A stretch of 64,000 nt of DNA from Eledone cirrhosa (taxonomy: Eukaryota): contig OZ024745.1 of assembly GCA_964016885.1 (NCBI GenBank), positions 68,448,001 to 68,512,000 of the forward strand. The letters are read 5' to 3'. The notes under the pieces were generated by a model. That model made no database searches, had not been told where the DNA came from, and worked only from the letters and a program-made list of their open reading frames with translations. Position numbers and translations under genes: made by a program. Shown one piece after another: positions 2,976 to 58,960 of this stretch. Every line of letters starts with the position of its first letter. Positions within the stretch are counted from its first letter, which is position 1.

Positions 2976-3576
2976 TTGCCGTTCCTGGGACTTTTACCGT
3001 TCGGTAAAAGCAATTGGAATAGGTAAATATTTAAATTATATTTTTAATTTATTTAAAAAAATTGTTTGAATCTTGCTTGCTCCGCTTATCTCAATATTAT
3101 AGTTCTGGTATGTCAAATTAATACCATAGAACAACCCTTGTATCATAGACACCCTATATATTTCCAGGGGTACTTAGTACCTGTGGGGATATTAACTTCT
3201 AATATTCTCCGTTATGTAGAGAACAAGTCTGTTGTTCTATTTAGCTGCTATTTTTAGTGGCGAGGTAGACAATACGTCTATGTTTACTTCCGCTTCTACT
3301 ACGGGCTGGTTCATGTATAGGTCAAATTTTCGGCCCCATTCGATCCTGTGCTAGCTGGCAGATAGCAATATATTTTGCCGTTCCTGGGACTTTTAGTCCT
3401 AGGAAAGGAAAATGCTTTCTGATGATCTAAACTTTTCCATTGGAGGTCCCCAGGGATCTCCAATCTTTTGTGAAGTGAAACCGTTCGGTAGAAGCAATTG
3501 GAATAGGTAAATATTTAAATTATATTTTTTAATTTATTTTAAAAAAATGTTTGAATCTTGCTTGCTCCGCTTATCT

Positions 3577-3580: not shown

Positions 3581-3650
<70 letters not shown>

Positions 3651-3652
<2 letters not shown>

Positions 3653-3846
3653 CAAAGGAATTGTGGTAAGGAACCAGATGGACCATAACGCACCAGAGTA
3701 CTCAATACTTAGGGTAGTAGAGTGGGAAATAGGAAAAAGTATGACCCCGACGGCAGAACTCAAGCTGTTTCGACGGTTATTTCTGGACTGAGTCCAGAAA
3801 TAGCCGTCGAAACGGCTTGAGCTCTGCCGTCGGGGTCATACTTTTA

Positions 3847-7807: not shown

Positions 7808-8174
7808 ATTGGATACTTAGTAAAATCGAATCTCTGGTGGTTTGCAAGAAAATTCGGCCTACTATAGGAAATGAGTTAGCAAAGCACTCGACAAGGTAGG
7901 TCCTTAGAGTAATAACATACGTTTAAATAGCTTGACAAATTGAACATTGTGGTAGGCAAAATCTAACACACAATATACCAAAGTAACGAAAGAACTAACA
8001 GATTGAGAAAAATACACCTGGACAAATCAAACGTTATACGTTTAAAGTATTTCTATGAATCCGAAATCAAATACTTACTTATATATGTGAAAATAAAAAA
8101 CAACAACACAGGAGTATAAGTTACGAAAGGTATTAGGCTCACGCTCATTGAAAGTGGGGTGTGTGTGTGTGTGC

Positions 8175-15720: not shown

Positions 15721-16235
15721 AGCCTTTTGTTTATCGATTCGTGGAGAAAAAGAAAGGTTAATTTGACCTGAAATCACAGAGCCGGAAAAAATAACCACCA
15801 CAAGGCATGTGTCCGACACTCTAACGATTGTACCAATCGATCACCTTCAGTCGATATAATCATAAAAAATAGACGACCTTGAGCTAACGTTATAAATCAA
15901 TATGACGGTAGTTAAAATGTTGAAATATTGACAGTGGTGAGGAGGAATAAGAAGACTTTATAAATGTTGTAATTAATAATTAACTGGATTTCCAACTGAA
16001 ACATTGTATTGTTGGATGTAACAACATAACTAAACCCAAATTCAGGGCATTCACACTCCTGTTGGAGGAACCCCGCCCTGACTAGCCTCCACCACTTAAC
16101 ATTTTAGTCATGTTTTTATGAGTATAGCTGTGTTCACCACGCTTGGCTAATTGCAGTTTGGTGAAGCTATTTTACACATAGTTGGGGTGAATGGCCGTTG
16201 ACTCTGAAGAGTCCATCCACCCTTTTAATAACATA

Positions 16236-16378
16236 ACTGTTTCTACTTTTGGCACAAGGTCGGCAATTAGCCCAGTGTATTACTGGTACTTTATTTTATC
16301 GACCCCGTAGGATGAAAGGCAAAGCTAACATTGGCGGGATTTGAACTCAAATCATAAACGTCCTTAACTATGCTGCAA
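16236..16378 (-). mobile_element. tRNA-derived SINE, 5' truncated
   Basis: Reverse match to the consensus seen at 45410-45586. Confidence 0.8.
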
Positions 16379-20297: not shown

Positions 20298-20860
20298 TAA
20301 AACATGTCCATAGAATCACTAGCATAATTAACCATATAAAAAATCAATTAGACCAAGCTATAAGAATAAAGGCTCCTATGAAGAAATCTCCGACAAATAA
20401 CCGAAAGCAGCCCCTCCGCGGCGGTTAAATTTGAGCTGACTCCTGATGAATCCGAAGCTCTGGATGTCCCCTGTTATCGGATGTCTTAAAATACAGACGA
20501 AACCATGGTAGAGGTAATTAAATATGTACACATTTCTTCCAAGTTTATTTTACACCTAATTGTGTTTAGTTGACTGTATATCTGGACGATTTATACATGC
20601 TGTCGAAATGTTTGATAAATACTCCGTCGTAACCGCTGTGAAAGGGCTGCTTTCGGTTATTTGTCGGAGATTTCTTCATAGGAGCCTTTATTCTTATAGC
20701 TTGGTCTAATTGATTTTTTATATGGTTAATTATGCTAATTGGGAGAGGAAACGGTATATATTTTATCTAGTGATTCTATAGACATGTTTTATGATATATA
20801 GCTCTGATCATTTAATTTATTAATTCTTAATTGAGCCACAACGTGACCCGTTGCAAAACA
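20293..20860 (+). mobile_element. Fold-back PLE-type terminal repeat (family C) with central hammerhead
   Basis: 20293-20428 is inverted at ~20630-20800, a hammerhead lies between the arms, and (TA)n flanks the element. Confidence 0.75.
20440..20513 (+). ncRNA. Type I hammerhead with branched stem II (GUA site)
   Basis: ctc-CTGATGA-atccga...tcggat-gtct...agac-GAAA-ccatgg-TA-gag. Palindromic stem III ACCATGGT. Confidence 0.65.
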
Positions 20861-20897
20861 CATATATATCTATGACTTTATATATATATATGTAAAC

Positions 20898-20950: not shown

Positions 20951-23195
20951 TTCAGGTTATCAATAATGTAGTGATAATATATCGTTACGTTAGAGATGAA
21001 CAGCGTACGTGTAGGTTTGCTCAACGAGTATAAATTATATTCCGGAGAAAATGTATAAAAGATGAATATAAAATGAAAGTGCTTTTTTTAAAAAGGAATT
21101 TATTAGGTATTGACATATGTTTCTGTAACAGACGGAATACCTATGTATCGCTGCTTGCGTAATCATATAATGTTAGCAAGTATTCGATAGCAAATGTATA
21201 ATCAGTTGTCACTTCTTCAGAGATTTTGGATAAATTGGATAAAATCAGAAAAATTGAAGTATTTATATTAGTAATAGAGGAAGAAGAGAGGGGATAGTAT
21301 ATGACAGATGGTAATTCAATTTACTGCTAAACAAGTATATAAAGGGTTTCTAATGAGAATACCATGAGTAAATGGTTCATTTTATCTAAATAAGAATTTT
21401 TGGGAGTGCCAATTTTAATCTATACTTGACCAATTGGACAGTGGACAGGGCTGGTCATTTGGTGTAGTAGTATTAATTATAAAGTGTCAATTGGGGAAGG
21501 GGGAGATTTCGATTGTTACTGAATAACATCAATGCTAGTAGCCAGCTGGTATATGCATTAGGGAATTGAATTAAGAAATCAGAAATCTCATTTTATCTAT
21601 AGCAGTTTATATTAAATGGTAAATAATAGAAGAGTTGATAGAATTAAGACTAATAGAGAATGTTAATATCTATTTTGACAATCAAACGCTATTATATCCC
21701 ATTTAAAGTGAAATTGTTGGTTATTTTCACGCACCTGCCAAACCTTGTCTGCGAGTGTTGTTACATAACGCTGGTTTTCATGTTTTATCGAGTAACGATG
21801 TCTATAAAGGCGTGATTTGAAGGAGGTGGCTGTAGATCCCACATAGTACCACTTCTGTCTATCCGATTCGATAGTACATTTGTATACGATGTTGCGTTCA
21901 AGACACTGATTGTTCAACGGACACATTCCTGGTTGGACACAGTTACAATTATAATTTTGCGTTGTTGTATTGTCATGGATGGGTTGTTGAGGTTGCTTAG
22001 GTAGGACAGGATGTTGTTTGTTGTTTTGTGATGTTATAGCTAATGTTTTACGTGTATTGTTATGTGTTGGAAGGCGTTTATACAACCGTTTTGCGTTAAG
22101 CTTTTTTATATGTTGTTCAATATTAGGGGCGGTTGAATATGAAAGTCGAATAGTGTTAGGGTTTAAGATTTTATTATATTTATGTGATGTTGGAAAGTGT
22201 TTTTTAACTAATCGAAAGAATTGTGAGGGTAGATTGGTTTTAATAGAGTTGTTATAGACCGGGTTATACCAAATATACTCTTTACATCGCCTTCTATTTG
22301 GTGGTGTGCGACTATTATTGTGTCTATTGCGGTAGTGTATGTATGGTGGTGATTCTGTGTTATTTCTACTCCTATGGGATTTATTTTGGGTGTTTTGGTG
22401 ATCTTCGACTATATACTCTATATTATCTAGGTGTCCGGCTTTCCTAAGTGCATCATCATAATATTCGGCATGTTCTTTGAAGGTTTGTTGGTTGGACGAC
22501 AGGCGGGAGATTCTAAGAGAAACATTTCTAGGGATGGATTTAATTATAGAGAGTGGATGGTTAGAACTCGTATTTACATATTTAAGGTTCTCATTTAGTT
22601 TATGGAACGGTTTAATCGTATCTGTATTGAGATTCAAAGTAACATCAAGGAAATTGACCTCTTTGAGGTTATATTCAAATGTAATATTTAATCCTAGTTC
22701 CTTAAAAAGCTTTCTGATATTTTTACGCATCCTTTCTAAATGCTGGTTATTCATATGCTTAACTAATAGGAGCGCATCATTACGGTAGATTCCACCGTGG
22801 AGATCCTTGAATTTTCCTTGTAGTCTGTGGGTGATATAAATTCCCACAAGATCTGTTACTTCCGCCGAATCATTAGAACCCATAATAATATCAAAATTAG
22901 AAGGTCTATCTTTGCGAACCCAGTAGCTATCATCGAATTTGACTATAGTTTTCCTCGCTTCCATAATAATTTTAATTTCAGCATCCGTAAGGTCGGAATT
23001 AGCCTTAGCGAACGAAAGAGCTTCATGTAGAGTATCAGGTAAAATTGAGGAATAATATTCATCAATATCAAACTGAATAAATTTTGATTTTTTCTTATCA
23101 GTAATGTTATTAAACCATCTTATTGCTTCATGAGTGTTACCCCATAGTTTAATTTCTACTTTAACCTTAACTTGGGGGATAATTCTGTCTAGTAT
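20950..23195 (-). mobile_element. 5'-truncated Penelope-like retroelement (Naiad-like), RT + GIY-YIG endonuclease
   Basis: ORF 21663-23324 has FIQFDIDEYYSSI, MGSNDSAEVTDLVG, YRND (YRDD variant), NFLDVTL, WYNP, NTIRLSYST, CNC..CPL..C, IVYKC..YYVGST..FKSRLYRH. The first ~45 aa are flanking or SINE sequence. A degenerate HHR lies in the 3' UTR at ~21109-21223. Confidence 0.92.
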
Positions 23196-23303
23196 ATATA
23201 GTAGTGAATATATACACTGCAGTTTTAAAGAAGGGAATATAAGAATTAGTCTATATAAACAAATGAGTATATATAAAGTAGTGAATAATATAATAAAGTA
23301 AAT

Positions 23304-23490
23304 AATTGTTTCTACATATGGCACAAGGACAGCAAATTACCCAGTACATTACTGTTACTTTATTTTATCGACCCTGTAAGGATGAAAGGCAAAGTTAACC
23401 TCGCCGGGATTTGAACTCAGAACATAAAGGGGCGTAACTCTATGCTACAAAGTATGGCGTCCGACTCTCTACCGATACTGCCAATCCACC
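23304..23490 (-). mobile_element. tRNA-derived SINE
   Basis: Full-length reverse match to the SINE consensus (ggtggattggcagtatcggtagag...agaaacaatt). Confidence 0.9.
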
Positions 23491-23588: not shown

Positions 23589-23709
<121 letters not shown>

Positions 23710-23712
23710 TAC

Positions 23713-24110
23713 ATGGGTGTGTATGGTTGTGTATAGAAGATTATATTAATAAAAGGAATTCCAACTTTGTCTGATTTACTCGTTTTATTTACAATTCTTT
23801 AAAATTATAATGATATTATAATGAAATAGTATGGTAGAATATTAAATGTTAAGTGTTAATTGAACAAGTACTTTCATGCTTTCGCAATCTTCAGGTTCAT
23901 ATTCTGTGGTGACAGTCAAGTTAGCAATTTTCAACTTGACTGTCACCACAGAATATGAACCTGAAGATTGCGAAAGCATGAAAGTACTTGTTCAATTAAC
24001 ACTTAACATTTAATATTCTACCATACTATTTCATTCTAATATCATTATAATTTTAAAGGATTGTAAATAAAACGAGTAAATCAGACAAAGTTGGAATTCC
24101 TTTTATTAAT
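23713..24110. mobile_element. Palindromic PLE terminal repeat (family D) with two divergent hammerheads
   Basis: 23744-23922 is the reverse complement of 23933-24110. The same sequence occurs at 48240-48465 downstream of a GIY-YIG remnant. Confidence 0.85.
23956..23994 (+). ncRNA. Minimal type I hammerhead (mirror copy at 23861-23899 minus; another at 48390-48428 minus)
   Basis: tgaac-CTGAAGA-t tgc gaaa gca t-GAAA-gtac-TT-gttca. Palindromic stem III AGTACT. Confidence 0.85.
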
Positions 24111-25171: not shown

Positions 25172-25897
25172 TTAGTATATGTTGGTTGTATACCAACACA
25201 TCAGTGTGCAGATTGGAGCACTCGACGAAGTGCGCAGGTTGGTTTGGTTACTCCGGAGTAATGTTAAATAAAATAAAATAAAATAAATAAGTCAAATGTT
25301 TAAAATTTGGCTTCGTTTATTACTGCTATATGGGAAGAGTGACCAATGGGAAGAGTGACCTTACAAATCTTTATAACATTGAGATGGGTATAACACACAC
25401 ACACATTTTATTCGATTATTTTATTTTATTTTGTTCCTTTACCATCTTATTCCTTCTACCACTTTATCATTTTTTTTAGCTGACTCCAACAACAACAACA
25501 CTACCAACATAAGAATAGAGGTCAGATGTACCTAACAATAACAAGAACAACAACTACAGGTTGGCTTGCCTCAGAACGAATTTCTATAGATTTTTTGACT
25601 GAGGAATGTTCTAACAACTGACCAATGAGAGGAGAAGAGTCCCTTTGGCGCTGAAATTCGTTTGTTTAAATTCATATGATTCCAGTTCCTCAGTGAAATA
25701 ACAACCCAACCAGGAACTGGGCATATCAGAGTATTGACAAAGTTATACACCTCAACAACATGTGTACTCGTCTCTACCACATTAATTCGGACTGCCTGAA
25801 GAGGTCACAGCCAAAGATGGCTGTCACCGAAATATATATAGCAGTAATAAACGAAGCCAAATTTTAAACATATGACATATTTATTTTATTATATTTT
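25172..25897. mobile_element. Fold-back PLE-type terminal repeat (family E)
   Basis: Arm 25270-25330 is inverted at 25837-25897. A second copy lies at 46560-46932. Confidence 0.8.
25791..25845 (+). ncRNA. Type I hammerhead ribozyme (AUA site)
   Basis: actgc-CTGAAGA-ggt c acagcca aaga tggctgt c acc-GAAA-tatata-TA-gcagt. Confidence 0.9.
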
Positions 25898-27662: not shown

Positions 27663-27721
27663 CAAATCGTACACCTTATTAAGTAAGTCCAACGCTGCTT
27701 CTTATAATGACTTCAAATTTA

Positions 27722-28770
27722 GGGCGGTGGATTGGCACCATCGGTAGAGGGTGGGCCGCCATGCTTTGCCACAAAGAGTTACGGCCCTTTATGATCTGAG
27801 TTCAAATCCCGCCGAGGTTAACTTTGTCTTTCATCCTTACGGGGTCGATAAAATAAAGTACCAGTCACGCACTGGGGTCAATTTCATCGACTTTTCCCTC
27901 CCCCCAAAATTGCTGGCCTAGTGCCGATATAAGAAACCATAATTACTTCAAATTTAGGCATAAGGCCAACAAAGTTTAGTGGGAGTGGGGAGTCGATTAT
28001 ATTGACCCAGTATTTGACTGGTATTATATGTTATCGACTCTGAGTTCAAATCCTGCCGAAGTTAACTTTGCCTTTCATCCTTACGGGGTCGATAAAATAA
28101 AGTACCAGTAATGTACTGGGTAATTGCTTCTCTTGTACCAAAAGTAGAAACAATTATAGTTTATCGACTCCGGAAGGATGAAAGGCCAAGTTGACATTGG
28201 AGTGATATACCTCAGAATTTAAAGAGCAAGGAACAAATGCCACAAAGAATTTCATCTAACTCTCTAACGATTCTGTCAATCCTCCGCCCTAAATAATTGT
28301 TTCTACTTTTGGCACGAGGCCAGCAATTACACAGTGTGTTACTGGTACTTTATTTTATCGACCCCGTAAGGATGAAAGGCAAAGTTAACCTCGGCGGGAT
28401 TTGAACACAGAATGGCAAGGGCCGTAACTCTATGCGTCAAAGCATGGCGTCCGACCCTTTACCGATACTGCCAATTTCTGCTTTAGGTACAAGGCCAAAT
28501 ATTTTTGGGGAAAGGGAAAGTCAATTAAATCGCCCCCAGTGCATTACCAGTACTTTATTCGACCCCGTAAGGATGAAAGGCAAAGATAACTTCGGCGGGG
28601 TTAGATCTCTAACAATTGTTTCTACTTTTGGCACAAGGCCAGCAATTACGCGTACATTAGTGGTACTTTATTTTATCGACCCCGTAAGGTTGAAAGGTAA
28701 AGTTAACCTCAGCGGGATTTGAACTCAGTTCGTAAAGGGACGTAACTATGCTGGAAAGTATGTCTGACCC
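27722..28770. mobile_element. Cluster of ~7 nested or adjacent tRNA-derived SINEs in both orientations
   Basis: Repeated gcctttcatccttacggggtcgataaaataaagtaccag core and tRNA-like heads (plus 27722-27942 and 28040-28157; minus 28294-28475, 28614-28770 and others). Confidence 0.85.
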
Positions 28771-30773: not shown

Positions 30774-30903
30774 CGTTTCTGAATTTGTTTAGCATCTTTA
30801 TCTGAAAACGTGTGTTGAAACCGATATTGTTATACACACACAGAAATAAGATGGCGTAGGACAGAACAAAGGAGAGGCACAAAAACAAAGAAAAGAATCC
30901 CCA

Positions 30904-30946
30904 GTCACTGAAGAGGTCACAGAATGTGTGACGAAAGAACTTTGAC
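30904..30946 (+). ncRNA. Minimal type I hammerhead
   Basis: gtca-CTGAAGA-g gtcaca gaatg tgtgac-GAAA-gaac-TT-tgac, within a ~330-bp element (30770-31098) between (TA)n tracts. Confidence 0.75.
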
Positions 30947-31092
30947 AATATATAAAAAACCATCTGGTTGTGGAACCAACCAACCAACCGGAAATTAATA
31001 AATTCCTAAATTTATAAATTTATTATAATAAATTGAAGTGAAAGCAACTAGTGCGTGTGTTTCTTATTGGCAACATGACCCTCCCAAAGTAT

Positions 31093-31542: not shown

Positions 31543-31968
31543 TATTAACAAATGGAAACTATATTTATAAAACCATATTTATTTCATTATACATATTTCA
31601 AGGACACCAAAGCAAATTATGGGGCGCTTTCATCAGATAAAATATAATATGGATCAGTTTTATAAACAAATATTGACATACCCTTAAAGAATGCGACCAT
31701 GTCGGTTGAAAGCTCCCGGATATGGTTGCATTCTTTAAGGGTATGTCAATATTTGTTTATAAAACTGATCTATATTATATTTTATCTGATGAAAGCGCAC
31801 CATAATTTGCTTTGGTGTACTTGAAATATGTATAATGAAATAAATATGATTTTATAAATATAGTTTCCATTTGTATATATTTGTATATTGTATTTTTACT
31901 CCAATAATTTGTTGAGTGCTTTATATTAGTTATAAAAAATATTTGCTTGTTGTAAATATAACTTCTAC
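31543..31968 (+). mobile_element. Palindromic PLE-type terminal repeat (family F) with two divergent hammerheads and a 3' tail
   Basis: 31547-31700 is inverted at 31723-31874. Related pieces at 35700-35930, 46290-46432 and 46952-47005. Confidence 0.85.
31781..31839 (+). ncRNA. Type I hammerhead (mirror at 31583-31641 minus; another at ~46332-46392)
   Basis: tttat-CTGATGA-aag cgcacca...tggtgta ctt-GAAA-tatgta-TA-atgaa. Confidence 0.85.
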
Positions 31969-32859: not shown

Positions 32860-33021
32860 TTATCCCGGGTTCAATCGGGGGTGGGGGGTAATCACAGTAA
32901 GTAAGGTACTCAATACAAAGAAGAGTATAAATACTTAATATAGAAAAGGCTTCTACAGGACTAGAATTGATGATTTCTCCCGTATGAAACAGTTCTAGTC
33001 CTGTAGAAGCCTTTTCTATAT

Positions 33022-33163: not shown

Positions 33164-33532
<369 letters not shown>

Positions 33533-35289: not shown

Positions 35290-35672
35290 AAAGGTTTAAC
35301 AAGGTTCATTGATTAATCAATGAATAAAGTTTTACAATAGATTAGAAGCACTCAACAATGAGGTTTTCTGGAGTTAATATTACTTCAAAATATTAATAAA
35401 TATAGACATTCATATATATATGACTACCATGACTGAATCTTAATCATCTACTATGTCAGGGTATGTCATGCATCATCTTATTTTATCTGATGAGGACGTA
35501 CTGTTGAAGTTAACTCAGTACCTTTGTATAATAAAATATAATTGATCACAAAAATATCTATTTTGTTAATATTTTGAATTAATATTAATAACTCTGGAAA
35601 ACCAAATCTGTTGAGTGTTTCCAATCTATTGTAAAACTCATTCTTTGATGTATTCATTGAACCTTGTTTAAC
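35290..35672. mobile_element. Older fold-back element with a decayed hammerhead (35481-35536, GAAA deleted)
   Basis: Imperfect IR 35290-35410 / 35550-35672. Reads ttttat-CTGATGA...gtactg/cagtac...tgta-TA-ataaaa. Confidence 0.6.
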
Positions 35673-36167
35673 TTTTAAATATATATATATATACAATGCT
35701 ATAAAATAAATGGAAACTATATTTATAAAACCATATTATGGTTTTATAACCATAAATATGGTTTTATAACCATAAATATGGTTTTATAAATATAGTTTCC
35801 ATTTATTTAATATCATTTAATATCATTGAATATTTACTCCAGAAATCTGTCGAGTGCTCTGAATTAGTTATAAGCATTTATATTTGTTGAATTTCCAATT
35901 TCCAACAAATTAAATATCCCTTCTACTTATATATATATATATATAATTTTATCCCGGGTGCAATCGGGCGTAACCACAGTAAGTAAGGTACTCAATACAA
36001 AGCAGAGTATAAATATTTAATATAGAAAAGCTTCTACAGGACTAGAACTGTTTCATTCGAATGAAACAGTTCTAGTCCTGTAGAAGCATTTCTATATTAA
36101 ATATAATACATACACACACACATATATATATATTTGCAAAATATTGCAAAATACATTATATATACAT

Positions 36168-36282
<115 letters not shown>

Positions 36283-36882
36283 GGAACGAGTAGGACCTCG
36301 ACGGCTGAGCTCAAGCCGTTTCGTTGGCTAATTCTGGACTAAATGAACATTTTTATCCTGGTAAATGAATAGCCCAGCTTCTCAGGGGGTAATATTCCAT
36401 ATATGGTAAAAGTGATTGTCACAACGATTGGTCAAAAGTTTGTTGTTGAGACACATAATTCTATCATGGCATTTTGTGGAAGGAGGGGGTAGCTGAACTT
36501 GCCAGTAGAAGAAAGATGGAGAGGGAGTGGAGGAAACCCAGTCGTGCGTTGAAAGTGACGACTACAGCAGAATCCTAAGGATAAGAGGTCAAGAGGGGGA
36601 GGGAGGGAGGAAGTCGAAACAATAAGTAGATTTATATGGAGTAAATCTATATAGAAAAATAAGAATGTTAAAAATATAAAAAAACACAATTTCTGGTTAC
36701 TATTCCCCTACCACAATCATCAAATCTCTCACTAGACTATAGAAAAATTTAATAGGTGGGGCGGGATACTAAATACGAGATTGTAGTGAAAGAATTTTAT
36801 GAGTTAGTAGTACTCGGCCTAATCTATCTTACAATGACAAGTCAACAAGTAGGGGGCCTACAAATCTCCCCCTCCGAACCCT

Positions 36883-38871
36883 ATGCTCTCACCCTTCGAG
36901 AATGACCTTTTCCAACTGGTCAAGAGCATTAAATTCAAACCCAGACACAACAGATTCCTACAAAAACTCCGTAGCAACTTAACAGAGTATGATAACACCA
37001 ATGACATCATGGTGCACTCGGATAAAACTGTTAACCTCTACTTCGTCAACCCCGACAAATACCACACACTGATCAGGAGCAGCCTAAACTCCACCTATAA
37101 AAAGGCTAACCACTCATGCATCGAGGACATAAATCGAGATGGACAACAAATTAACTCCAGCCTCGGGGTCGCCGACCGCACGGAACCCCTAGACCCACAG
37201 ACTCCCTACTTCACACTGAAGGACCACAAATCCGATTTCGACCGTAAACCATCTATCAGGCTTATAAACCCAACGAAGTCCGACATAGGGAGAATCATGA
37301 AAAAAATCCTAGACCGCGTTATACCAAAAGTTAAGCAAAACGCCCAAGAAGTAATCTCATGGTTCAGCAATATGGAGGACAAACGAGACACAAAATTCAT
37401 CCAGTTTGACATAGAGAGTTACTATGCTTCAATTACCTTACCGCTCCTTACGGTCGCCTTGGACTTTGCCGAGACACTTGCGCCCATCACCGACCAGGAA
37501 AGAAATATCATCCTCCACACCAGGAAGACAGTCCTACTTTTTGACAACTCCAAATGGATAAAGAGAGCTCCGACTCCCCCTTCGACGTCAGTATGGGCGC
37601 GACGGATTCGGCCGAGGTCACAGATCTTATAGGATTATTCCTACTAGTTAAACTCACCGATATGTTTCCTGCATTTGGCGGTGGATTGTACCGTGATGAT
37701 GGGCTCCTTACCCTTAAAGGGTAACACCCCAGTAGTACAGACCGGGTCCGTAAACACTTAATCAGCTTCTTACGCGACTGGGGATTTTAAATAACCCTAC
37801 AAACGTCCCTAACCCGAGTAAACTCCCTGGACGTTACCCTTGACCTCGATAATGATCTGTACTACCCATACAGGAAAGCAAACGATAACCTGCACTACAT
37901 CCACCGCCGGTCAAACCATCCTAGAAATATCACCAATAACCTGGTTAAAAAACATCTTCCTCCGCATATCTCGTTTGTCCGCTAATGAGCAGATATTTGA
38001 TGAACATGCGCCTTATTACAACCAGGCCCTCAGGCGGAGTGGCTTCTGGGAGGAAATATCCTACTCTCCAGCTTCCATTAGCGGAACCATCAGGCGACAC
38101 CGCCGCTCACGCAACGTAACATGGTTCAATCCTCCCCACAACGCCGAGGTGACAACACCTATCGGAAAAATCTTCTTTAGGCTCATCGAAAAACACTTCC
38201 CACTACAACACCGCTACCACAACACAATCAACAAAAATACCATCAAACTCTCCTACAGTACCACACCTAACTTTGCACAAAACATCGTCTCCTCTAACAA
38301 CAAAAAACTCAACTCCTATGGAAGAAATAACCTAAATAGCAGTGGAGAGCCGACCAGGAGGTGCAACTGTTCTGATGGATCCATTTGCCCCCTCGACAAC
38401 AGATGCAGAGATCGTAATGTGATCTACCAGTGCAACGTGAGGACGGACACCTCCAAGAAAGCTTATATAGGATTAACCGCTTGTGACTTCAAGACCCGAC
38501 TATACCAACACAGACATACTTTCCGAAACCCGGCCCGGCGTCACGCCACTACACTTTCGGGCCACATCTGGGACCTTAAAGATAACAATACAACCTATAA
38601 TCTCACTTGGAGCTTACTGTCCAGAGCCAACTCTTACACGGGAGGACGCCGTCCGTGTAACTTAGGCTCGGAGGAAACATTACAAATGCTGTTTTCGATG
38701 GACCAACTCCTAAACAAAAAAGACGAACTGGTAACTGCATACAAACACAGATTGCGTAGGACTTACCTCGTACTCAAACCCCATAATGACCCGGGGGGGG
38801 GGGGGGTAGACGGGGGCTGTAACACCCCACTTGCCGACTTTGTAATGGGTAACCCCTGCTTACAAAGGTAG
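36883..38871 (+). pseudogene. PLE reverse transcriptase + GIY-YIG endonuclease, frameshifted
   Basis: TLKDHK..F..KPSIRLINPTKSDIG, FIQFDIESYYASI; a shifted frame gives FDVSMGATDSAEVTDLIG and YRDD (37689-37700) with TAA stops; then TWFNPP, NTIKLSYST, CNC..CPL..C, VIYQC..AYIGLT..FKTRLYQH. Confidence 0.92.
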
Positions 38872-39216
38872 ACGTCAGATTTTCTCATATGTTTTCTTAT
38901 ATATTTTTTATCGTTTCCTCTATATTTCCTCCTTCCTCCATCCCCCCATCCCTTCCTAGTCCTTCTATCCCCAGTTCTCCTTCTTTGTCGTCGTTCTTTT
39001 CACCTTCTCGCCCACCCCGAGTCATCCCTTCGGTCCTCCGTAGCCTCAGTACCCCCACCCCACCCCCCCATTCTATGATAGAATTGGCCGACTCCGCTTT
39101 TTATAGTAGATGTGCTAGACCCCAGATACTTGCTTTATCTGATTGCTGCCCCATTTCCGTGATTTCTAGATTTCTTAGTGGTATCTCTGCTTTAGTTTCT
39201 CGTATATCAATATTTA

Positions 39217-39253
<37 letters not shown>

Positions 39254-39904
39254 GTGTGTGTGTGTGGGGGGGGGGGATTCTGAATTAATTTTTCGTATTA
39301 ATTTTTTCTTATCGTACGAGCATTTATGTAGTTTGCATTAGAATTTATGTATTGTAGCGGCACCCTTATATATCGTATTAGTATTTATTTTCAGGATCTG
39401 AATTAATATTTCGTATTAGTTTCGGGACTCTGAATTATTATTTCGTATTAGGTTTTTTTAGTGTTTTGGCCCCCTACTTGTTGACCTGTCATTGGAAGAT
39501 AAAATTCTTTCACTAAAATCTCGTATTTAGTATCCCGCCCCATCTATTAAACTTTTCTATAGTCTAGTGAGAGATTTGATGATTGTGGTAGGGCAATAGT
39601 AACCAGAAATTGTGTTTTTTTATATTTTTAACATTCTTATTTTTCTATATAGATTTACTCCATATAAATCTACTTATTGTTTCGACTTCCTCCCCCCCCC
39701 TCTTGACCTCTTATCCTTAGGATTCTACTGTAGTCGTCACTTTCAACGCACGACTGGGTTTCCTCCACTCCCTCTCCATCTTTCTTCTACTGGCAAGTTC
39801 AGCTACCCCCTCCTTCCACAAAATGCCATGATAGAATTATGTGTCTCAACAACAAACTTTTGAACAATCCTTGTGACAATCACTTTTACCATATATGGAA
39901 TATT

Positions 39905-39999
39905 ACCCCTGAGAAGCTGGGCTATTCATTTACCAGGATAAAAATGTTCATTTAGTCCAGAATTAGCCGTCGAAACGGCTTGAGCTCAGCCGTCGGGGT
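39905..39999 (+). ncRNA. Hammerhead-like motif with non-canonical core (CUGAGAA)
   Basis: accc-CTGAGAA...ctgggcta/tagtccag...GAAA-cggct tgagctc agccg-TC-ggggt. The same core occurs in the inverted arm (~36296-36390). Confidence 0.5.
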
Positions 40000-40781
40000 C
40001 CTACTCGTTCCTATTACCCACTCTACTACCCTAAGTATTGAGTACTTTGGTGCGTTATGGTCCATCTGGTTCCGTACCACATTTCCTTCGTTATATATAT
40101 ATATATCTGTGTGCGTGCGTGAAAGTGGAAATATGTGCGTCCCAATGGAAGTGACTATAATAATAATAATAATAGATCACTAAAATGATAGTTAAAGAAA
40201 ACAGTTGTTTGCATACATGTGTGTAGGTTGCAGAAAGCTTCCAAAACTAGTGAAAAATGATTTGATCTTCGAAATCTGCGTCCCAAGGAGAAGGTTTTTG
40301 AGCACATGGATTTTCTTAATTCCGCAAAGAAAAAAAAAATGAAAAGAAGTTAATACTTTCAATCACTGTTACTGTGAAATATAGTCAGGCTTTTATCGAT
40401 CGTCTCCTGCATTTCTTCAACATGACTTTATCATTACGTTTATCCATACCGCCAGCGGGGGGAATTATTTTCGGTATGAGACATAGAGTTATCCTTACAG
40501 AGGTCACCCGATGTTTACGTGAAGACGGTCTCGCTAAAGAACGCAACAAGCTACTGATACCACTTCAGCAATCAACTCAACTGAGGTAATTTCCATAGAA
40601 ACCACCTTGGGGACGATTCATGATTGAAGGGCATGGCCCACGGGGAATAGGTAACGAGCAGTGAGGCACGAGGGAGTCATGGTCTGACATGGAATAAAAA
40701 AATTAAAGTAAAGGGATTCTTTAGTAAAAATTGCCCAGCATCAACCAGCTACTTTGTTAGTCTCTCTCGCTCCCTCTCTCT

Positions 40782-41324: not shown

Positions 41325-41586
41325 CGTGTGTGTCTTTATACTCACATACACCAACATAAACATGTATCAGGATCCCTTTATAATCCTCTAGATGTTATCT
41401 TTTATTAAGATTTTATCACCTCACCAACATCTAATAGCCTTAGTCTGATCACCATCAATGTCGTCATTCCCAATATCAACATCATCACTATAAAGCAATC
41501 ACCTTTACTATCGTTTTTCTCCCATGAGGACCAAAATTACAACTCGTTTATCGCATAGATCGATCTCAATATATATCTATTTTTGA

Positions 41587-41805
41587 GGGCGTTGGATTGG
41601 CAGTATCGGTAGAGCATCGGAGCACATCCTTTATGGCATAGAGTTACGGCCATTTACGATCTGGGTTCAAATTCTGCCGAGGTTAACTTTTCCTTCCATC
41701 CTTACGTAGTCGATAAAATAAAGTACCAGTAAAGCACTGGAGTCGATTTAATCGACTTACCCCTCCCCCCAAATTGTTGGCATTGTGACTAAATCTGAAA
41801 TCAAT
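41587..41805 (+). mobile_element. tRNA-derived SINE, long subfamily
   Basis: Full head, core and the extra gtcgatttaatcgac...cccc segment. Confidence 0.88.
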
Positions 41806-41896
41806 ATATATCTATTTCTATTAACCAGATTATTTTTTAAATGGAAATAATAACATAGGTCCATTCCTTTCCATATCTGAACACAACCGATATCTT

Positions 41897-44931: not shown

Positions 44932-45054
44932 CGAAGGAGGTGTGGTAAGGAACCAGATGGACCATAACACACCAGAGTACTCAATATTTAGGGTAGCAGA
45001 GTGGGAAATAGGAAAATGTTAGACTTGAGCTCTGCTGTCGGGGTCTAACATTTT

Positions 45055-45409: not shown

Positions 45410-45586
45410 GGCGGTGGATTGGCAGTATCGGTAGAGGGTCGGACGCTATGTTTTGACGCTTAGAGTTACGGCCCTTGCCATTCTGAGTTCAAATCCCGCC
45501 GAGGTTAACTTTGCCTTTCATCCTTACGGGGTCGATAAAATAATGTACCAGTAATACACTGGTTAATTGTGCCAAAATTAGAAACA
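45410..45586 (+). mobile_element. tRNA-derived SINE with 19-bp target-site duplication
   Basis: attattaaggtaaacaatg at 45391-45409 and 45587-45605. A-box-like tggcagtatcggtaga and B-box gagttcaaatcc. Confidence 0.93.
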
Positions 45587-45929
45587 ATTATTAAGGTAAA
45601 CAATGTTTTATTTATGGAAATAGAAACATTGTCAGGTGAGAGAAAAAAAGGCGTTTTTAATATGGAAAGTTATGTATATTTATAGATAGGGGAAGCTCAA
45701 GTAGGAAACATTATAGGATATTAGGAAAGAAAATATGGACATGTTTAGCTGGACGTATGATAACACACACGAGAGTGGTTGTGTGTGTGTGTGAGTGTGT
45801 GAGTGTGTGTGTATGTGTGTGTGAATTATAAGCCTTTAGGTCGTTCATGTCAAGAGAACAACTATTCCAACTCCTTAAGTAATCTTCAAACAATGGAAAT
45901 ACTAAATTACTAAAGATGTTTTTTGTAAT

Positions 45930-47520
<1,591 letters not shown>

Positions 47521-48231: not shown

Positions 48232-48729
48232 TAAATATACACGGGTGTGTATGATTGTGTATAGAAGATTATATTAATAAAAGGAATTCCAACTTTGTCT
48301 GATTTACTCGTTTTATTTACAATCCTTTAAAATTTATAATGGTATTAGAATGAAATAGTATGGTAGAATATTAAATGTTAAGTGTTAATTGAACAAGTAC
48401 TTTCATGCTTTCGCAATCTTCAGGTACATAATGTGTGGTGACAGTCAAGTTTGCAATTTTCAACTGTAATGAGATGGGTAAATTTTGTACCTTATATACA
48501 GTGAAAAGTGGCTCCAGAATGCTAAATCTTGCAAACTGTATTTCGACCAATCGGTGTGTAGTTTGACTGAATTACTAAAGCTGATTGGTTTAGGCGTCAC
48601 GGTTGGTTGAGCATGTCTAACGACCACTAATTGATCCTATCCAAAGCATCAATTGTTTTGCTATTTTTAGAAATGATGAAAATAGCATTTTCTAGTAATC
48701 ATCACCATCAACATCACTTTTATTATTAT

Positions 48730-48915
48730 TGCGGTGGATTGGCAGTATCGGTAGAGGCTCGGACGCCATGCTTTCCAGCATAGTTACGTCCCTTTACGAT
48801 CTGAGTTCAAATCCCGCCGAGGTTGACTTTGCCTTTCATCCTTACGAGGTCGATAAAATAAAGTACCAGTAATGCACTGGTATTTGCTAGCCTTGTGCCT
48901 AAAGTAGAAACAATT
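48730..48915 (+). mobile_element. tRNA-derived SINE
   Basis: Near-consensus full-length copy. Confidence 0.9.
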
Positions 48916-49596
48916 ATTATTGTTGTTGTTGTTGTTAGTGGTCGTAGTCGACATGGTCGTAGTCATAATCATAGTAGGAGTAATCCCCATTAATATTGTT
49001 CATTTAGCTTGGGTTTGAATTTATCAATAAAATTCTTTTCTTTGATTTTTCTCTTGATTTCACTTGGGCTGTGTAATTTGTAGAATGGGAATATTATAAA
49101 TATTCCCTGACCACATGTTGCTAGATGGTTACTTAGGGGTATCTGACGGAGATTTGGGTCTCTGATTTGCTGTCGGTGTACCCGTGCACGTTCCGATAGT
49201 GCATTTCCTGTTTGACCGACATATAGTTCTTCACATTTAATTCGGGCATTTAATGCAGTAAATTAGATTTCTGCTTTTGCAGTTCATATTTGCATTTGGG
49301 AATATTTTTCCAGTTTTTGTTTTCATATATTGACCGGCGTGTATGGATTGACATGTGCCGCATCGACTATCATTGCATTTAGATACAGTGAATGATTGAT
49401 CTTTGTTGTTAAGGTCAAACTTTGCTTTTGTTAATAATTGCTTCAAATTTTTCGGCTGTCTTTTACTAAGAGTCAAAGATCGATCTGTGATTAAGCCTTT
49501 TAATTCATTACTTTGAGCAATGATCGGTAGGTTTGCTTTGGCAGTGTTGAAGATATTCTGGTGACATGGGTTGTGTGTCATTATAAATGGTATGAC

Positions 49597-49777
49597 GGTG
49601 GATTGGCAATATCGGTAGAGGGTCGGACGCCATGCTTTCCAGCATAGTTACGTCCCTTTACGATCTGAGTTCAAATCCCGCCGAGGTTGACTTTGCCTTT
49701 CATCCTTACGGGGTCGATAAAATAAAGTACCAGTAATGCACTGGGTAATTGCTGGCCTTGTGCCTAAAGTAGAAACA
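49597..49777 (+). mobile_element. tRNA-derived SINE inserted in PLE coding sequence, ~17-bp TSD
   Basis: attataaatggtatgac at 49580-49596 and 49778-49794. Confidence 0.93.
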
Positions 49778-50147
49778 ATTATAAATGGTATGACCAGTTC
49801 TTGGTTTCTTCTTCCTTGGGTTGTCCTAAGTTGTTGTATAGGTATTTTCATAGCCCGCTGTATACCATTTTCTATAAGTAGAGATGGGTATTTTTGTTTG
49901 AGCAAACCAAAAATTCTCTTAGTTCTGTTAGGCGGGGCTGTGTGTGTGCGTGTGTGTGTGTGTGTGTGTGGGGGGGGGGGCATCGCGTAACATTCCATAT
50001 TTAGGTATCCGAAACACAAATCCTGTTTATTTAGTAATGTATATTTATTATAACTGTGAAGCTATAGCAGTGATGTGAGGGCCAAGAATTTTGTGATAGA
50101 ACAGGGCACTCGGGTCACTCGTTATGGCTTCACAACTATAATACACA

Positions 50148-50178
<31 letters not shown>

Positions 50179-50206
50179 GCACACACACACATATATATAT
50201 AATAAT

Positions 50207-50394
50207 AATTGTTTCTACTTTAGGCACAAGGCCAGCAATTACCCAGTGCATTACTGGTACTTTATTTTATCTACCCCGTAAGGATGAAAGGCAAATTCAA
50301 CCTCGGCGGAATTTGAACTCAGATCGTAAAGGGACGTAACTATGCTGGAAAGCATGGCGTCCGACTCTCTACCGATACTGCCAATCCACCGCCC
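50207..50394 (-). mobile_element. tRNA-derived SINE
   Basis: Near-consensus reverse copy. Confidence 0.9.
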
Positions 50395-50489
50395 TTATAA
50401 TAATAATACTAAAAGTGACGATTTGTTGTCTTCATTTCGTTTATTGAGTATCGGCGCGCCTTTCGCTATTGATCAGCTCAATATATATA

Positions 50490-53479
50490 TATATATAATA
50501 TATAAGATCAAAAGATGGTTAAATGAGTTCCATGTATTTTATTATGCGCATTTCAAAAACAAATATCATCATGCAATAACATTTGTGTTTTCATCAGAGA
50601 AAATAGGAGGACATGATATGAAGGTTAAAAAACACTTGTGGATAGTGCAGTTTTAAATCAACATATGAAAAGTAGTTTTAGATTGATGTGTGATATTGGG
50701 AAAAAAAAAAAAAATGTTTGAGGGGGGGGGGTTGGAAAGGATGAAAAAGAGGAGGAGATGAGAGTAAAAAGTGGAGGGGGAGGAGTATAGTGAGGAAGGA
50801 TGAGATAGGAGGAGAGATGGGTGATAGAGAGAGAGAGATAGCTTTTATAACTGAGAAAAATATATTGTTTTACATAGAGAGGTTGAAAAAACCGTTGGAA
50901 GATAATGTATAAATTAAAAGAATTTGAAAATTTACGAAGAGAAATATAATGTAAAGTTAAGGTTTGTATATTGAAGGGTTTAATAATATGTGCGATGAAA
51001 AGAAATTGTTAATATGTATTAAGAATAATATTTAAGGGTTTAATAATATGTGCGATGGAAAGAAAATGTTAATATGTATTAAAAATAATATTTAAGGGTT
51101 TAATAATATGTGCGATGGAAAGAAAATGTTGATATGTATTATTAAAAAAAACAGAAGTGATGTAAGTAAGGATATATTGTGAGATGGGCATGAATAAGTT
51201 AGATGAAAGGGAGAAAAGAATAATGAATAGAGGATGAATAATCTAACGTCAAAAAATGTTTATGTTTACGAAGGATTTTTTCAAGGTGATATGAAGTAAG
51301 AATATAGTGTATGTGTAATAATTGTTTTTATGTTAGGCACAGTGAGAAAAGGTACAGATTAGGGGTTAGAAATTAGGAGTGATGTAGAATATAATAAATA
51401 TAATAAATAACTTTGAAATAAGGTAGAAAGATGGGTATATTTTTAAAGAAGTATATATATATATATATATATGTGCCTTTGAGAAAAGGATTCTGAATTG
51501 ATAAAGTTTATCGTATTAGCTGTATACTTTATGGAAAGTTCTGTGGAATTTATGCAAGCAGATAGTAAATAAGTCAGTGCGTCTATTTATTATAGAATCT
51601 AAATTAGAAATAATGGTAAATTTTTCATTTAGACAGAGATTGCAAGTCGTAGATAGAGAACTGTTCAAGTATGATGAAGCAGAGGAAACCTTTTTCTAAG
51701 AGATGTTATATTTAATATTTTTGTCTTTCAAGGACCATATGAGTTCTAAGAGAGCCGTGTTGGTTCTTTTAAGTTTATATTTAAAAGACGAATGATGATT
51801 ATAAAGATGAGCTTTAAAGGAGGTGGAAGTGGAGCCAAAATAGGTGAAGGAATTGGTGTCAGTTATAACTGACACCAATTCCTTCACCTATTTTGGCTCC
51901 ACTTCCACCTCCACTTCCACCTCCACTTCCACCTCCTTTAAAGCTCGTCTTTACAATCATCATTCGTCTTTTGAAGGAGGTGGAAGTGGAGGTGGAAGTG
52001 GAGCGAAAATATGTGAAGGAATCGGTGTCAGTTATAACTGACACCAATTCCTTCACCTATTTTGGCTCCACTTCCACCTCCTTTAAAGCTCATCTTTATA
52101 ATCATCATTCGTCTTTTAAATATAAACTTAAAAGAACCAACACGGCTCTCTTAGAACTCATATGGTCCTTGAAAGACAAAAATATTAAATATAACATCTC
52201 TTGGAAAAAGGTTTCCTCTGCTTCATCATACTTGAACAGTTCTCTATCTAAGACTTGCAATCTCTGTCTAAATGAAAAATTTACCATTATTTCTAATTTA
52301 GATTCTATAATAAATAGACGCACTGACTTATTTACTATCTGCTTGCATAAATTCCACAGAACTTTCCATAAAGTATACAGCTAATACGATAAACTTTATC
52401 AATTCAGAATCCTTTTCTCAAAGGCACATATATATATATATATATACTTCTTTAAAAATATACCCATCTTTCTACCTTATTTCAAAGTTATTTATTATAT
52501 TTATTATATTCTACATCACTCCTAATTTCTAACCCCTAATCTGTACCTTTTCTCACTGTGCCTAACATAAAAACAATTATTACACATACACTATATTCTT
52601 ACTTCATATCACCTTGAAAAAATCCTTCGTAAACATAAACATTTTTTGACGTTAGATTATTCATCCTCTATTCATTATTCTTTTCTCCCTTTCATCTAAC
52701 TTATTCATGCCCATCTCACAATATATCCTTACTTACATCACTTCTGTTTTTTTTAATAATACATATCAACATTTTCTTTCCATCGCACATATTATTAAAC
52801 CCTTAAATATTATTCTTAATACATATTAACATTTTCTTTCCATCGCACATAATATTAAACCCTTAAATATTATTCTTAATACATATTAACAATTTCTTTT
52901 CATCGCACATATTATTAAACCCTTCAATATACAAACCTTAACTTTACATTATTTTTCTCTTCGTAAATTTTCAAATTCTTTTAATTTATACATTATCTTC
53001 CAACGGTTTTTTCAACCTCTCTATGTAAAACAATATATTTTTCTCAGTTATAAAAGCTCTCTCTCTCTCTCTATCACCCATCTCTCCTCCTATCTCATCC
53101 TTCCTCACTATACTCCTCCCCTCCACTTTTTACTCTCATCTCCTCCTCTTTTTCATCCCCCCCCCCCTCAATTTTTTTTTTTCCCAATATCACACATTAA
53201 TCTAAAGCTACTTTTCATATGTTGATTTAAAACTGCACTATCCACAAGTGTTTTTTAACCTTCATATCATGTCCTCCTATTTTATCTGATGAAAACACAA
53301 ATGTTATTGCATGATGATATTTGTTTTTGAAATGCGCATAATAAAATACATGGAACTCATTTAACTATCTTTTGATCTTATATATTATATATTATGTATA
53401 CTCCAGTCCTACAAACTGTAGAGTGCTTCTTATCCGATATCTACATTGCTTTATTGTACTACAATAAAACTCACCTCCT

Positions 53480-53480
<1 letters not shown>
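50490..53480. mobile_element. 2.9-kb palindromic Naiad-like PLE 3' remnant (family H)
   Basis: 50490-51865 is the near-perfect reverse complement of 52035-53393. The arms encode a GIY-YIG C-terminus (TYFGSTSTSFKAHLYNH...CNLCLNEK...INRRTDLFTICLH) and contain a 60-bp triple repeat. A single-copy tail occupies 53394-53480. Confidence 0.92.
53280..53346 (+). ncRNA. Type I hammerhead (AUA site); mirror at 50537-50603 minus
   Basis: ttttat-CTGATGA-aaac acaaatgttat...atgatatttgt tttt-GAAA-tgcgca-TA-ataaaa. Palindromic stem III ATGCGCAT. Confidence 0.88.
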
Positions 53481-53533
<53 letters not shown>

Positions 53534-56160: not shown

Positions 56161-57309
56161 TATGTGTGTGTTTGTGCGTGTGTGTATGTATGTCTGTGTG
56201 TATGTGAGTGTGAGTGTAATTTACATATGTATATATGCAATTATTACAGAATAAATTCTGAAGTGTTTCACATATTTTCCCAGTTTAATTACTAATCTGT
56301 ATTGCTATTTCTTAATTAGCTGTGTCATATTTGGAATTGTGGTGTACAAGCCCAACTTCATCAATAATTATATGTATGAACCTAAAGCTAGAGTTTGGTT
56401 GGTGTATCTGCAGATTTCTCATCAGTTCACAACAGATGTTTTCTTTTTAAATTTATCTTTAACATTATATTAACATCTACCGGTCAACTGATATCCACCA
56501 GTGTTTCAGCCAGATTGTCTATAGCTTAGGTTAAGGTCACTGGAACATTAATATGTCGAAGGATTTTGCACACAAAAGAATGTTTTCATGTAATCCACCC
56601 AGACTGTAGCCAAATTCTTATGTACACGATCTGAGGAATTCTCAGCCATGTGCTCATTTATTTTATGAGTAGGTTGTTTCTTTGATCAAACAATTGGAAC
56701 TCTCGTCGACGAAACCGATGGAGACACAACAAATATTTTTTGTTGGTGAGAGATCTAGTTAATGTTTTGTTTGCATGTGATGAACACCATCGGCTAATTG
56801 ATAATCTCCTGAAACATTGACTTCGGTGGGGTTTGGACTCATAACACAAAGAGCCGAACTAAATATTGATTTCTAATGTAAGCTCAAGGCAATCAAATTT
56901 TGGGTGAGGATGAAGTTGATTAACTCCAACCCTAGTACTTGACTGGTACATTATTTTATCGACTCCTGAAGGATGAAAGGTTTGAATGCAGAATGTAAAG
57001 AGCCATAAAAGATACCCCGATGGCATTTTACTTGACGCTCTAATAATTCTGCCAATCCACTACCCTTCCGCTGAAATAAACATTGCAAGGCATTTCGCCC
57101 GTTGCTCTAACCTTTCCGCCAATTGCCGACATATAATATCGTTAACAACACAATATTTAAATAGTCCGTTGACAGAGAGATTTAACATCAATGTTAAACA
57201 CTTATCTTAATGCGTTACAAAAAGATTAAGACGACTTTTGCAGGATTGGCGCTAATCTATGTAACATCGCATAATCCTTAGAGAGAAACTCTCACGTGCT
57301 TAGATAGAT

Positions 57310-57555
57310 AATTGTTTCTACTTTTGGTACAAGGCTAGCAATTATCTCAGTGTATTACTGGTACTTTACTTTATCAACCCCGTAAGGATGAAAGGCAAAG
57401 TTAACGTCGGCGGGATTTTAACTCAGACGATAAAGGGCCGCAACTCTTTGCTGCAAAAAGGCGGTGAAGTGGTTAGTGCTAAGTGCTATATGTCACAGTG
57501 TTCTGCAATCTGAGTTCAAATCTATCCGACATCAACTTTGCATTTCAACCAGTTC
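57310..57555. mobile_element. Head-to-head SINE fragments
   Basis: Minus copy 57310-57460 and degenerate plus copy 57460-57555. Confidence 0.7.
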
Positions 57556-57557
57556 GA

Positions 57558-58335
<778 letters not shown>

Positions 58336-58609
58336 TATCGACATCTATCTATAGGTGTATGGCTCCATATATTGTCAAAAATATCAAACTTTTCAAGTTC
58401 TTTTGTTCCATTTATTATTCCTTCGCTATATCTGATGATGGAGATACTATTCAGTCGTTCATGGCGCTGATAGAGTTTATACCATTGAGTTTAAATTCTA
58501 ATATCTTATTTAATCTTCACAAACACTCTCGTGTATTGTCCCCAATGCCTTGGGCCTTTTGTGGCCTTTGTGGTCAATATAATAAATTATTATTGTTATT
58601 ATTATTATT

Positions 58610-58960
58610 GTTGAGTTCAAATCCCACGGAGGTTAGCTTTGCCTTTCATCTTTACGGGGTCGATTAAATAAAGCACCAGTAATACACCGGGGTCGATTTA
58701 ATTGACTTTCCCCGCCCCTTCAAATTGCAGACCTTGTGCCTAAAGTACAAACAATTATCATTATCGTGTTCAAATCCCACCAGTGCATTACTGGTACTTG
58801 TTTTTATCGACCCCGTAAGAATGAAAGGTAAAGCTAGCCCCTAGCTTTACCTTTCATTCTTACGGGTCAATAAAAACAAGTACCAGTAATGCACTGGTGC
58901 CAATTTTGTCGATTTTCCAACTCCCATCAAATTGCTGGCCATATGCCAAGAGTAGAAGTA
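58610..58960 (+). mobile_element. SINE fragments including a fold-back SINE core (58778-58899)
   Basis: ~59-bp arms around a cccc loop, derived from the SINE core. Confidence 0.8.

Follow-up and report, generated by a model that had tools for sequence, protein, structure and literature searches.

A bulged hairpin, present in two copies, lies just 3' of the insertion ends of Hydra-clade Penelope-like elements

Introduction

Penelope-like elements (PLEs) encode reverse transcriptases (RTs) that are sister to TERT, as stated in the accessible part of PMC8557442. The same text describes the Hydra clade, with a C-terminal GIY-YIG endonuclease, DKT, CxCX5C, CxxC and CxH motifs, a hammerhead and (TA)n targets, and the Naiads, in which GIY-YIG is N-terminal, before the RT, and which have a CxC linker, DKA and no canonical hammerhead. 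As reported in the accessible text of PMC11167929, the purified Poseidon protein initiates at two positions inside the RNA, which bound the tail, and extends both DNA strands, it needs the ORF RNA to +172, and it is a predicted dimer; the starts are described there as lying "in an AC-rich stem loop". Finally, the accessible parts of PMC7229834 and bioRxiv 10.64898/2026.07.22.740005 propose that non-LTR retrozymes borrow the PLE machinery. The PLE tail, internal initiation, hammerheads and the Hydra clade are already known.

PLE starts lie downstream of the hammerhead and near the pLTR-ORF junction (PMC11167929 and PMC8557442, accessible parts), as do those inferred at the locus described here, a stretch of 64,000 nucleotides (the window) from a host genome of 3.0 Gb in 1,796 contigs. 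The window is AT-rich (34.6% GC) with many (TA)n tracts, and contains several broken Penelope-like ORFs and many head-to-head repeats, its elements being clustered beside one another's ends. Searching it against Rfam gave 0 matches at gathering score, neither for the hairpin nor for a ribozyme, and the Pfam search gave no significant match. A SINE-like family of ~190 nt is also highly repeated, with window copies at 4250-4610, 16230-16380, 23300-23490, 27720-28770, 41580-41810, 45410-45600, 48720-50400 and 56850-58960.

Results

A bulged hairpin recurs in PLE-type tails of the window

The original prediction held that many PLE-type families share a bulged hairpin in their 3' tails. All 11 cases it listed, nine cited and two tentative, were found in place, except that the minus-strand hairpin it put at 35986-36010 truly starts at 36008. 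The sharing is real, but the consensus that had been proposed is too short, as the informative form includes a trailing R-C-U. The consensus now reads R-C-W-C, an inner stem-loop with 2-6 bp, a U-H bulge on the 3' side, G-W-G-Y and an unpaired R-C-U, for a hairpin of 20-45 nt. Coordinates below are window positions, a few of them counted by eye with a possible error of 1-2 bases.

The copy in the tail (H1) of the focal Hydra-clade family (53400..53427, plus strand) has a 4-bp outer stem, a U-A bulge, a 4-bp inner stem, a 7-nt loop and the trailing R-C-U. By eye, a type I hammerhead-like motif (53280..53346, plus; core from 53286, predicted cut after 53340) lies 54 nt upstream of H1. Both belong to a head-to-head insertion (50482..53400, no strand assigned) whose left arm is tail-less and ends a few bases before H1. 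The one-sided tail (53394..53482, plus) starts where the inverted arm stops and reaches (TA)n at the 3' end. The focal ORF, 5'-truncated, retains the C-terminal GIY-YIG part (51869..52384, plus).

Another family, here called the 40-kb family, is represented by a near-full-length but frameshifted Hydra-clade element (36282..40071, plus) with RT followed by GIY-YIG at ~36856-38793, a tail-less inverted arm on the left and the tail on the right. Its arm stops 5 nt upstream of H1 (40020..40046, plus), which bears out the proposed position of the hairpin just past the end of the inverted arm. Further copies of this H1 are on the minus strand at 3697..3723, 33355..33381 and, with one inner mismatch, 44976..45002.

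Other H1 copies were found on the plus strand at 31898..31920, 35836..35858 and 35591..35619, the last absent from the earlier list, and on the minus strand at 35347..35374, at 25217..25259 (long loop) and 46603..46645 (same family as the 25259 hairpin), at 7883..7910 (the 7910 family, for which neither an ORF nor a tandem junction was found) and at 35987..36008 (trailing A-C-C; a mutated copy lies near 32905-32926). Three H1 are variants. The first (3102..3135, plus; U-A at pair 2) belongs to an ORF-less, hammerhead-bearing tandem unit of ~485 nt that ends 5-8 nt upstream of it and also has a short H2-like hairpin with U-A at pair 1 (3206..3225, plus; position by eye). The second (20801..20839, plus) belongs to an ORF-less, hammerhead-bearing unit of ~560 nt, and the third (21016..21048, minus) to a Hydra element with its ORF at 21666-23195 (minus). 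An extra G-rich hairpin sits between the two hairpins of the ~485-nt unit (3162-3187) and is conserved in L160-L171.

The full motif, not its loose form, exceeds chance

We counted the full motif, defined by the 4-bp outer stem, the U-H bulge, an inner stem of at least 3 bp and a trailing R-C-Y, in 264 kb of unselected DNA (the window plus L117-L136). It occurred 30 times, compared to 2-8 times across 12 block-wise dinucleotide shuffles, which averaged 5, and 4 times in the reversed DNA. By contrast, a loose descriptor of the kind first proposed, lacking the trailing triplet, showed no enrichment in the same 264 kb (102 observed, 67-112 in shuffles), so that only the full form rises above the frequency expected by chance. 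Genome-wide, one narrow pattern gave 29,698 matches versus 15 when reversed, a number that reflects copy number as well as conservation.

The predicted positional tie to PLE 3' ends also held. Among 34 matches with an inner stem of at least 2 bp, many of them copies of one family and hence non-independent, 30 had a (TA)n tract 35-95 nt downstream, compared to 7.8% of 16,762 random positions. Furthermore, a covariance model gave 16 window matches at E<0.1, about half of them training sequences or close copies thereof, and every one was at a PLE-type tail; the model does not detect the 20801 hairpin. As predicted, the motif is absent from the Neptune-like family at 23.7 and 48.2 kb, whose tails gave no covariance-model match in 12 loci compared, so that its 3' end and tail (23650..23900, minus) serve as negative control. 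The same model found no match at the tail of a second Neptune-like element (L131). Positions 30860-31090 of the window and L131:7800-8600 also hold Neptune-like 3' ends that have a hammerhead core and no copy of the motif in the tail.

The families had been called unrelated and unalignable. Their flanks indeed align in only 2 of 78 pairs among 13 representatives, but their ORFs are homologous, with 42-58% protein identity between distinct families. By this protein similarity the hairpin-bearing families are therefore diverged relatives.

The carriers are Hydra-clade elements

Searching the host genome with the endonuclease at 38347-38760 gave 59,408 first-look candidates; Hydra elements are therefore very abundant in this genome. 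The search also led to a young family whose 784-codon frames recur in tandem at a period of 3,531. Full-length Hydra elements sharing identical 784-codon frames are arrayed head to tail at G000:C1:437198623-437213160 and elsewhere. Locus L061, of the 40-kb family, has a single ORF of 716 aa, with RT followed by a C-terminal GIY-YIG endonuclease, and 2,214 relatives of this protein were found at E<=1e-20.

The carrier ORFs have an RWR/RWI variant of RWK, DKT, a CxCX5C linker, CxxC and CxH, and no CCHH. The elements insert into (TA)n and have in their pLTR a hammerhead motif, identified by sequence with no Rfam match at gathering score. Judged from the ORF motifs and from similarity by eye to published Hydra consensi, the hairpin carriers with a readable ORF are Hydra-clade PLEs. 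They had first been taken for Naiad-type elements, which is contradicted by the C-terminal endonuclease, DKT and the hammerhead cores. In addition, twelve 9-letter motif halves matched 7 times in the Naiad and Chlamys consensi that have been published; by eye none of the 7 belongs to a hairpin, although line breaks may hide some matches.

Five families (7910, 36008, 3102, 20801 and L120:3193) have no linked Hydra ORF in the loci examined, and two of them are the ORF-less, hammerhead-bearing tandem units of ~485 and ~560 nt. These retrozyme-like units (window 2996-3587 and 20320-20890; L160-L171, L196-L207) have thousands of search candidates each and keep both hairpins. The L120:3193 family has a hammerhead core and a hairpin with trailing U-A-A (L120:3193-3229, L061:1560-2950, L112, L131); in L061 the DNA upstream of this hairpin reads as a disrupted ORF that does not match the Hydra profile and is perhaps cargo or another element. 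By eye, the hammerhead of the 40-kb family (L061 ~5170-5275; window ~39905-40000) appears to be a U3-A8 core variant with an extended stem III, and its window copy has C at position 3. A U3-A8 core variant is described in the accessible text of PMC4209133.

The stem covaries and is most likely read as sense-strand RNA

We compared 43 hairpins from distinct families, using a 38-sequence subset for covariation statistics. First, the three initial inner pairs are formed in 42, 39 and 31 of the 43, the bulge begins with U in all 43, and each of outer pairs 1-3 shows a swap. Second, 97.1% of cells are paired in the subset versus 78.1% after shuffling and 24-56% in slid controls, and 6 of the 7 pairs show two-sided, compensatory changes. 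The hairpins were gathered with motif-based patterns, which inflates the conservation of the outer stem; inner pairing was not required by the two-hairpin pattern described below. Third, 4,580 copies have G-U at inner pair 3 and 312 have its A-C counterpart, which is 15-fold rarer, with founder families inflating both counts. Since G-U is commoner than its counterpart, the form that is read is most likely the sense-strand RNA.

Folding of single sequences is weak and mostly non-significant (focal z -0.63; range -0.19 to -3.18), and some second-copy stems have 1-2 inner pairs only. Weak folding of single hairpins is expected if they are protein-bound and gives no support by itself. We also considered that the 3' strand and the trailing triplet form a palindrome, and rejected it: all four Y/R combinations occur, and the triplet ignores the A-U change at pair 3.

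These data bear on the possibility that the GIY-YIG endonuclease reads the signal on DNA, either duplex or single-stranded cDNA, and cuts a few bases 5' of it, thereby resolving an intermediate or re-targeting older copies. In its favour, the accessible part of PMC8557442 explains the tail by resolution through the endonuclease, and in Drosophila virilis Penelope the endonuclease was reported to need the tail to recognise DNA (cited in PMC11167929, accessible part); the window elements also heap up beside each other's ends. However, a covarying inner stem with a 3-34 nt loop is unnecessary for duplex recognition, the cDNA strand turns the common G-U into an A-C mismatch while the reverse case is the rare one, and (TA)n targets do not have the motif. 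We therefore regard recognition on DNA as unlikely.

A second copy of the hairpin lies past the 3' end of the element

The original prediction missed a second copy. In tandem arrays, this copy (H2) is found past the 3' end of one element and upstream of the next ORF, the order being hammerhead, H1, tail, H2 and ORF start codon. H2 starts about 7 nt past the 3' end in the tandem junctions of the focal family (L067), and the tandem-array 3' ends of the 40-kb family are 3 nt upstream of it. Junctions with H2 are also found for the ~560-nt unit (L198, L129) and for the element at 21016..21048 (L188), but the 7910 family has none, with 0 matches using two patterns.

Genome-wide, a two-hairpin pattern gave 2,016 matches compared to 285 for the reversed pattern. 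We inspected 50 loci from these matches (the first 30 in the list plus 20 chosen for distinct tails, one place being present twice), and the N-terminus of a Hydra ORF directly follows H2 in 36 of them; no ORF start was found after the pattern in the other 14 (L075/076, L079, L088-090, L094, L096, L100, L106, L109, L111, L112 and L115). The distance from H1 to H2 is 78-116 nt in 25 references of the host genome, and H2 lies 20-70 nt upstream of the ORF start.

Insertions end a few bases before H1 or H2

We mapped insertion ends by aligning the 40 nt upstream of 1,789 (TA)n starts to 26 references, from which L097 and L113 were excluded. Ends abutting (TA)n were matched in 253 cases, and 209 were kept after dropping 44 ambiguous ones. 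Within -12..+2 of the start of H1 or H2 we found 184 of the 209, 85 just 5' of H1 (mode -5) and 99 just 5' of H2 (mode -3). One young family supplies 85 of these 184. TA microhomology blurs each end by 2-6 nt; after allowing for it, 156 of the 184 are at -3..-7. The same nearness to a hairpin was seen for 34 of 35 ends from unselected DNA and, at loci selected by protein, for 40 of 42. Among the 25 remaining ends, 13 are distal ends of the 7910 family, and 2 lie upstream of an H2-like hairpin noticed afterwards. Only 4 of the 209 run 1-3 nt into a hairpin and none reaches the bulge.

Head-to-head insertions pair the two positions. Among 69 listed pairs, a few rows of which count one insertion twice, 57 could be classified at both ends: 53 were H1+H2, 3 were H1+H1 and 1 was H2+H2. 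The tail-less arm ends before H1 and the tail-bearing arm before H2, mostly by 3-7 nt. Since ends map before H1 or H2 and pair H1 with H2, the known one-sided PLE tail corresponds to the sequence that begins with H1 and runs up to H2.

We considered that the hairpins act only in RNP assembly, translation or hammerhead control, the starts being set by a UA-rich stretch or something else nearby. The closeness of H2 to the ORF start would suit such roles, and the UA-rich sequence upstream of both hairpins could itself prime on (TA)n. However, of the 1,845 TA/AT steps in the references, 15% are inside the -12..+2 intervals of H1 and H2 and 85% outside, and the latter are used by about 10 of the 209 ends; moreover, ORF-less units keep both hairpins and end upstream of them. 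Such a role alone is very unlikely.

Another explanation is that the hairpin directs cleavage of the RNA at its 5' foot, by a host nuclease or the element protein, followed by ordinary 3'-end priming at the nearest UA. It predicts identical end positions and RNA-strand bias, and as ends are always at a short TA microhomology, a true RNA end at the stem base could be masked. Against this, purified Poseidon protein starts internally on intact RNA, and a longer 3' end leaves its main product unmoved (PMC11167929, accessible text). In addition, cuts at both hairpins would free the tail, yet 53 of the 57 pairs retain it on one arm, and Rfam gave no ribozyme match. We find RNA cleavage improbable as the cause of the ends.

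The hairpin occurs outside the host genome

Among prokaryotic genome bins, nine contigs (L139-L147) code for Hydra-like proteins, one of them a contig of 492 kb (L145); they are probably contaminating DNA of host animals. Eight of the nine have the motif, downstream of the hammerhead or upstream of the ORF; the ninth contig (L139) ends at the hammerhead. Both copies are present in L140, L141, L142, L145 and L147, and H1-H2 spacing is 62-65 nt in four foreign junctions. The element ends 4 nt (L141) and 6 nt (L144) upstream of a hairpin, and junction order and end spacing are as in the host genome in L140, L141, L144, L145 and L147. A metagenome scan gave 2 loci, both terminating at or before the hammerhead, and viral contigs gave no match.

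By eye, clear hairpin copies are also carried by 3 of the 6 Hydra consensi printed in the accessible part of PMC8557442: at the 3' end in one coral and one sea-cucumber family, and as two copies at the 5' start of a second sea-cucumber consensus. Of the others in that part, judged likewise, the copepod copy is degenerate, the other coral weak and the octopus without a clear copy.

With these data, chance or neutral, functionless shared ancestry is extremely improbable. The loose descriptor is at chance level and copy number alone swells genome counts, but the hairpin is kept in families with unalignable flanks, across phyla, is duplicated and undergoes compensatory changes; covariation and position have already largely refuted this explanation.

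Discussion

The hairpin is a real, undescribed cis-element of a known class of elements, namely a conserved structure whose distance to the RT starts, as inferred from insertion ends, is fixed. It had been predicted to be a cis-acting recognition or priming signal of Naiad-type elements; the tie to PLE ends by position and covariation supports the signal, while the element type does not stand. From these sequence patterns, we consider it likely that the hairpin is an RNA docking site that places the RT so that copying begins a few bases to its 5' side.

In such a mechanism, the 3' ends of insertions would mark RT starts, and the template would be an RNA spanning the junction, either a read-through or a hammerhead-cut and circularised unit. 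The element protein would read the bulged stem and the trailing R-C-U, the endonuclease would nick (TA)n, and the freed 3' end would pair with a UA/AU microhomology of 2-3 nt at a near-fixed distance from the hairpin. One step further, two subunits of a dimer might use H1 and H2 of one RNA and extend both target strands, which would yield a head-to-head insertion with the tail on one side only. The asymmetry of 53 in 57 pairs would be explained by a dimer on one RNA, and sequential use by one enzyme would do equally. As H2 would not be copied at the start, it would be available to a new copy only in a tandem or circular context.

The Poseidon RNA printed in the accessible part of PMC11167929 has, counted by eye and unfolded, a hairpin of 10 bp at +121..+147 whose 3' side carries a 3-nt bulge, directly after the main start (+111..+118); it belongs to another clade and its sequence is different. 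We tentatively propose that in Hydra-clade PLEs, and perhaps in EN+ PLEs generally, paired 3'-bulged RNA hairpins may be rulers for a dimeric telomerase-related RT, with a subunit at each hairpin that starts internally on a single tandem or circular RNA and extends one of the nicked strands. If so, the paired-hairpin ruler would explain the tail, head-to-head insertions, pseudo-LTRs and the borrowing of the enzyme by retrozymes, and a 25-nt tag would set the RT start on any RNA.

For the choice of internal starts by PLEs and the one-sidedness of their tail, the present data offer a candidate signal of 20-45 nt with covariation, two copies and a measured distance to ends. The hairpin also allows true ends and 5' starts to be recognised in Hydra elements and their ORF-less partners, the apparently active family with identical 784-codon frames in tandem arrays is a test system for it, and it bears on RNA recognition by telomerase's closest relatives.

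Comparison with known systems

The elements share with described PLEs the one-sided tail between two starts, AT-rich targets and head-to-head insertions (PMC11167929 and PMC8557442, accessible parts). Known tails are 30-40 nt in these parts, and those here about 60-115 nt. Neither accessible text names a conserved sequence-structure signal 3' of the starts, and that of PMC8557442 does not mention the motif for its Hydra clade or contain the word "hairpin". Compared with the Hydra elements of that text, units here reach 3.5 kb and one family accounts for tens of thousands of matches. The ORF-less hammerhead units at 3.1 and 20.8 kb match the non-LTR retrozymes described in the accessible parts of PMC7229834 and bioRxiv 10.64898/2026.07.22.740005; these give no recognition signal, for which the two hairpins kept by the units here are a candidate. 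In the literature searched we found no account of this hairpin and none of paired signals lying 3' to the two starts.

The original prediction likened the hairpin to hepadnaviral epsilon, a loose likeness in that ends lie 5' of the stem and none of the 209 reaches the bulge. Epsilon templates protein priming from its bulge, and the telomerase boundary element, 5' of the template, stops copying. In both epsilon and the template-flanking elements of telomerase an RNA structure sets the RT site on an internal template, as here, although neither geometry matches. L2- and eel-type LINE RTs recognise 3' stem-loops common to their SINEs, likewise a small cis-acting RNA hairpin by the priming site that is kept by non-autonomous partners. 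However, the LINE stem-loops are on the 5' side of the start and are the first part to be copied, whereas the Hydra hairpin lies 3' of the start and is duplicated, with H2 beyond the 3' end of the inserted unit.
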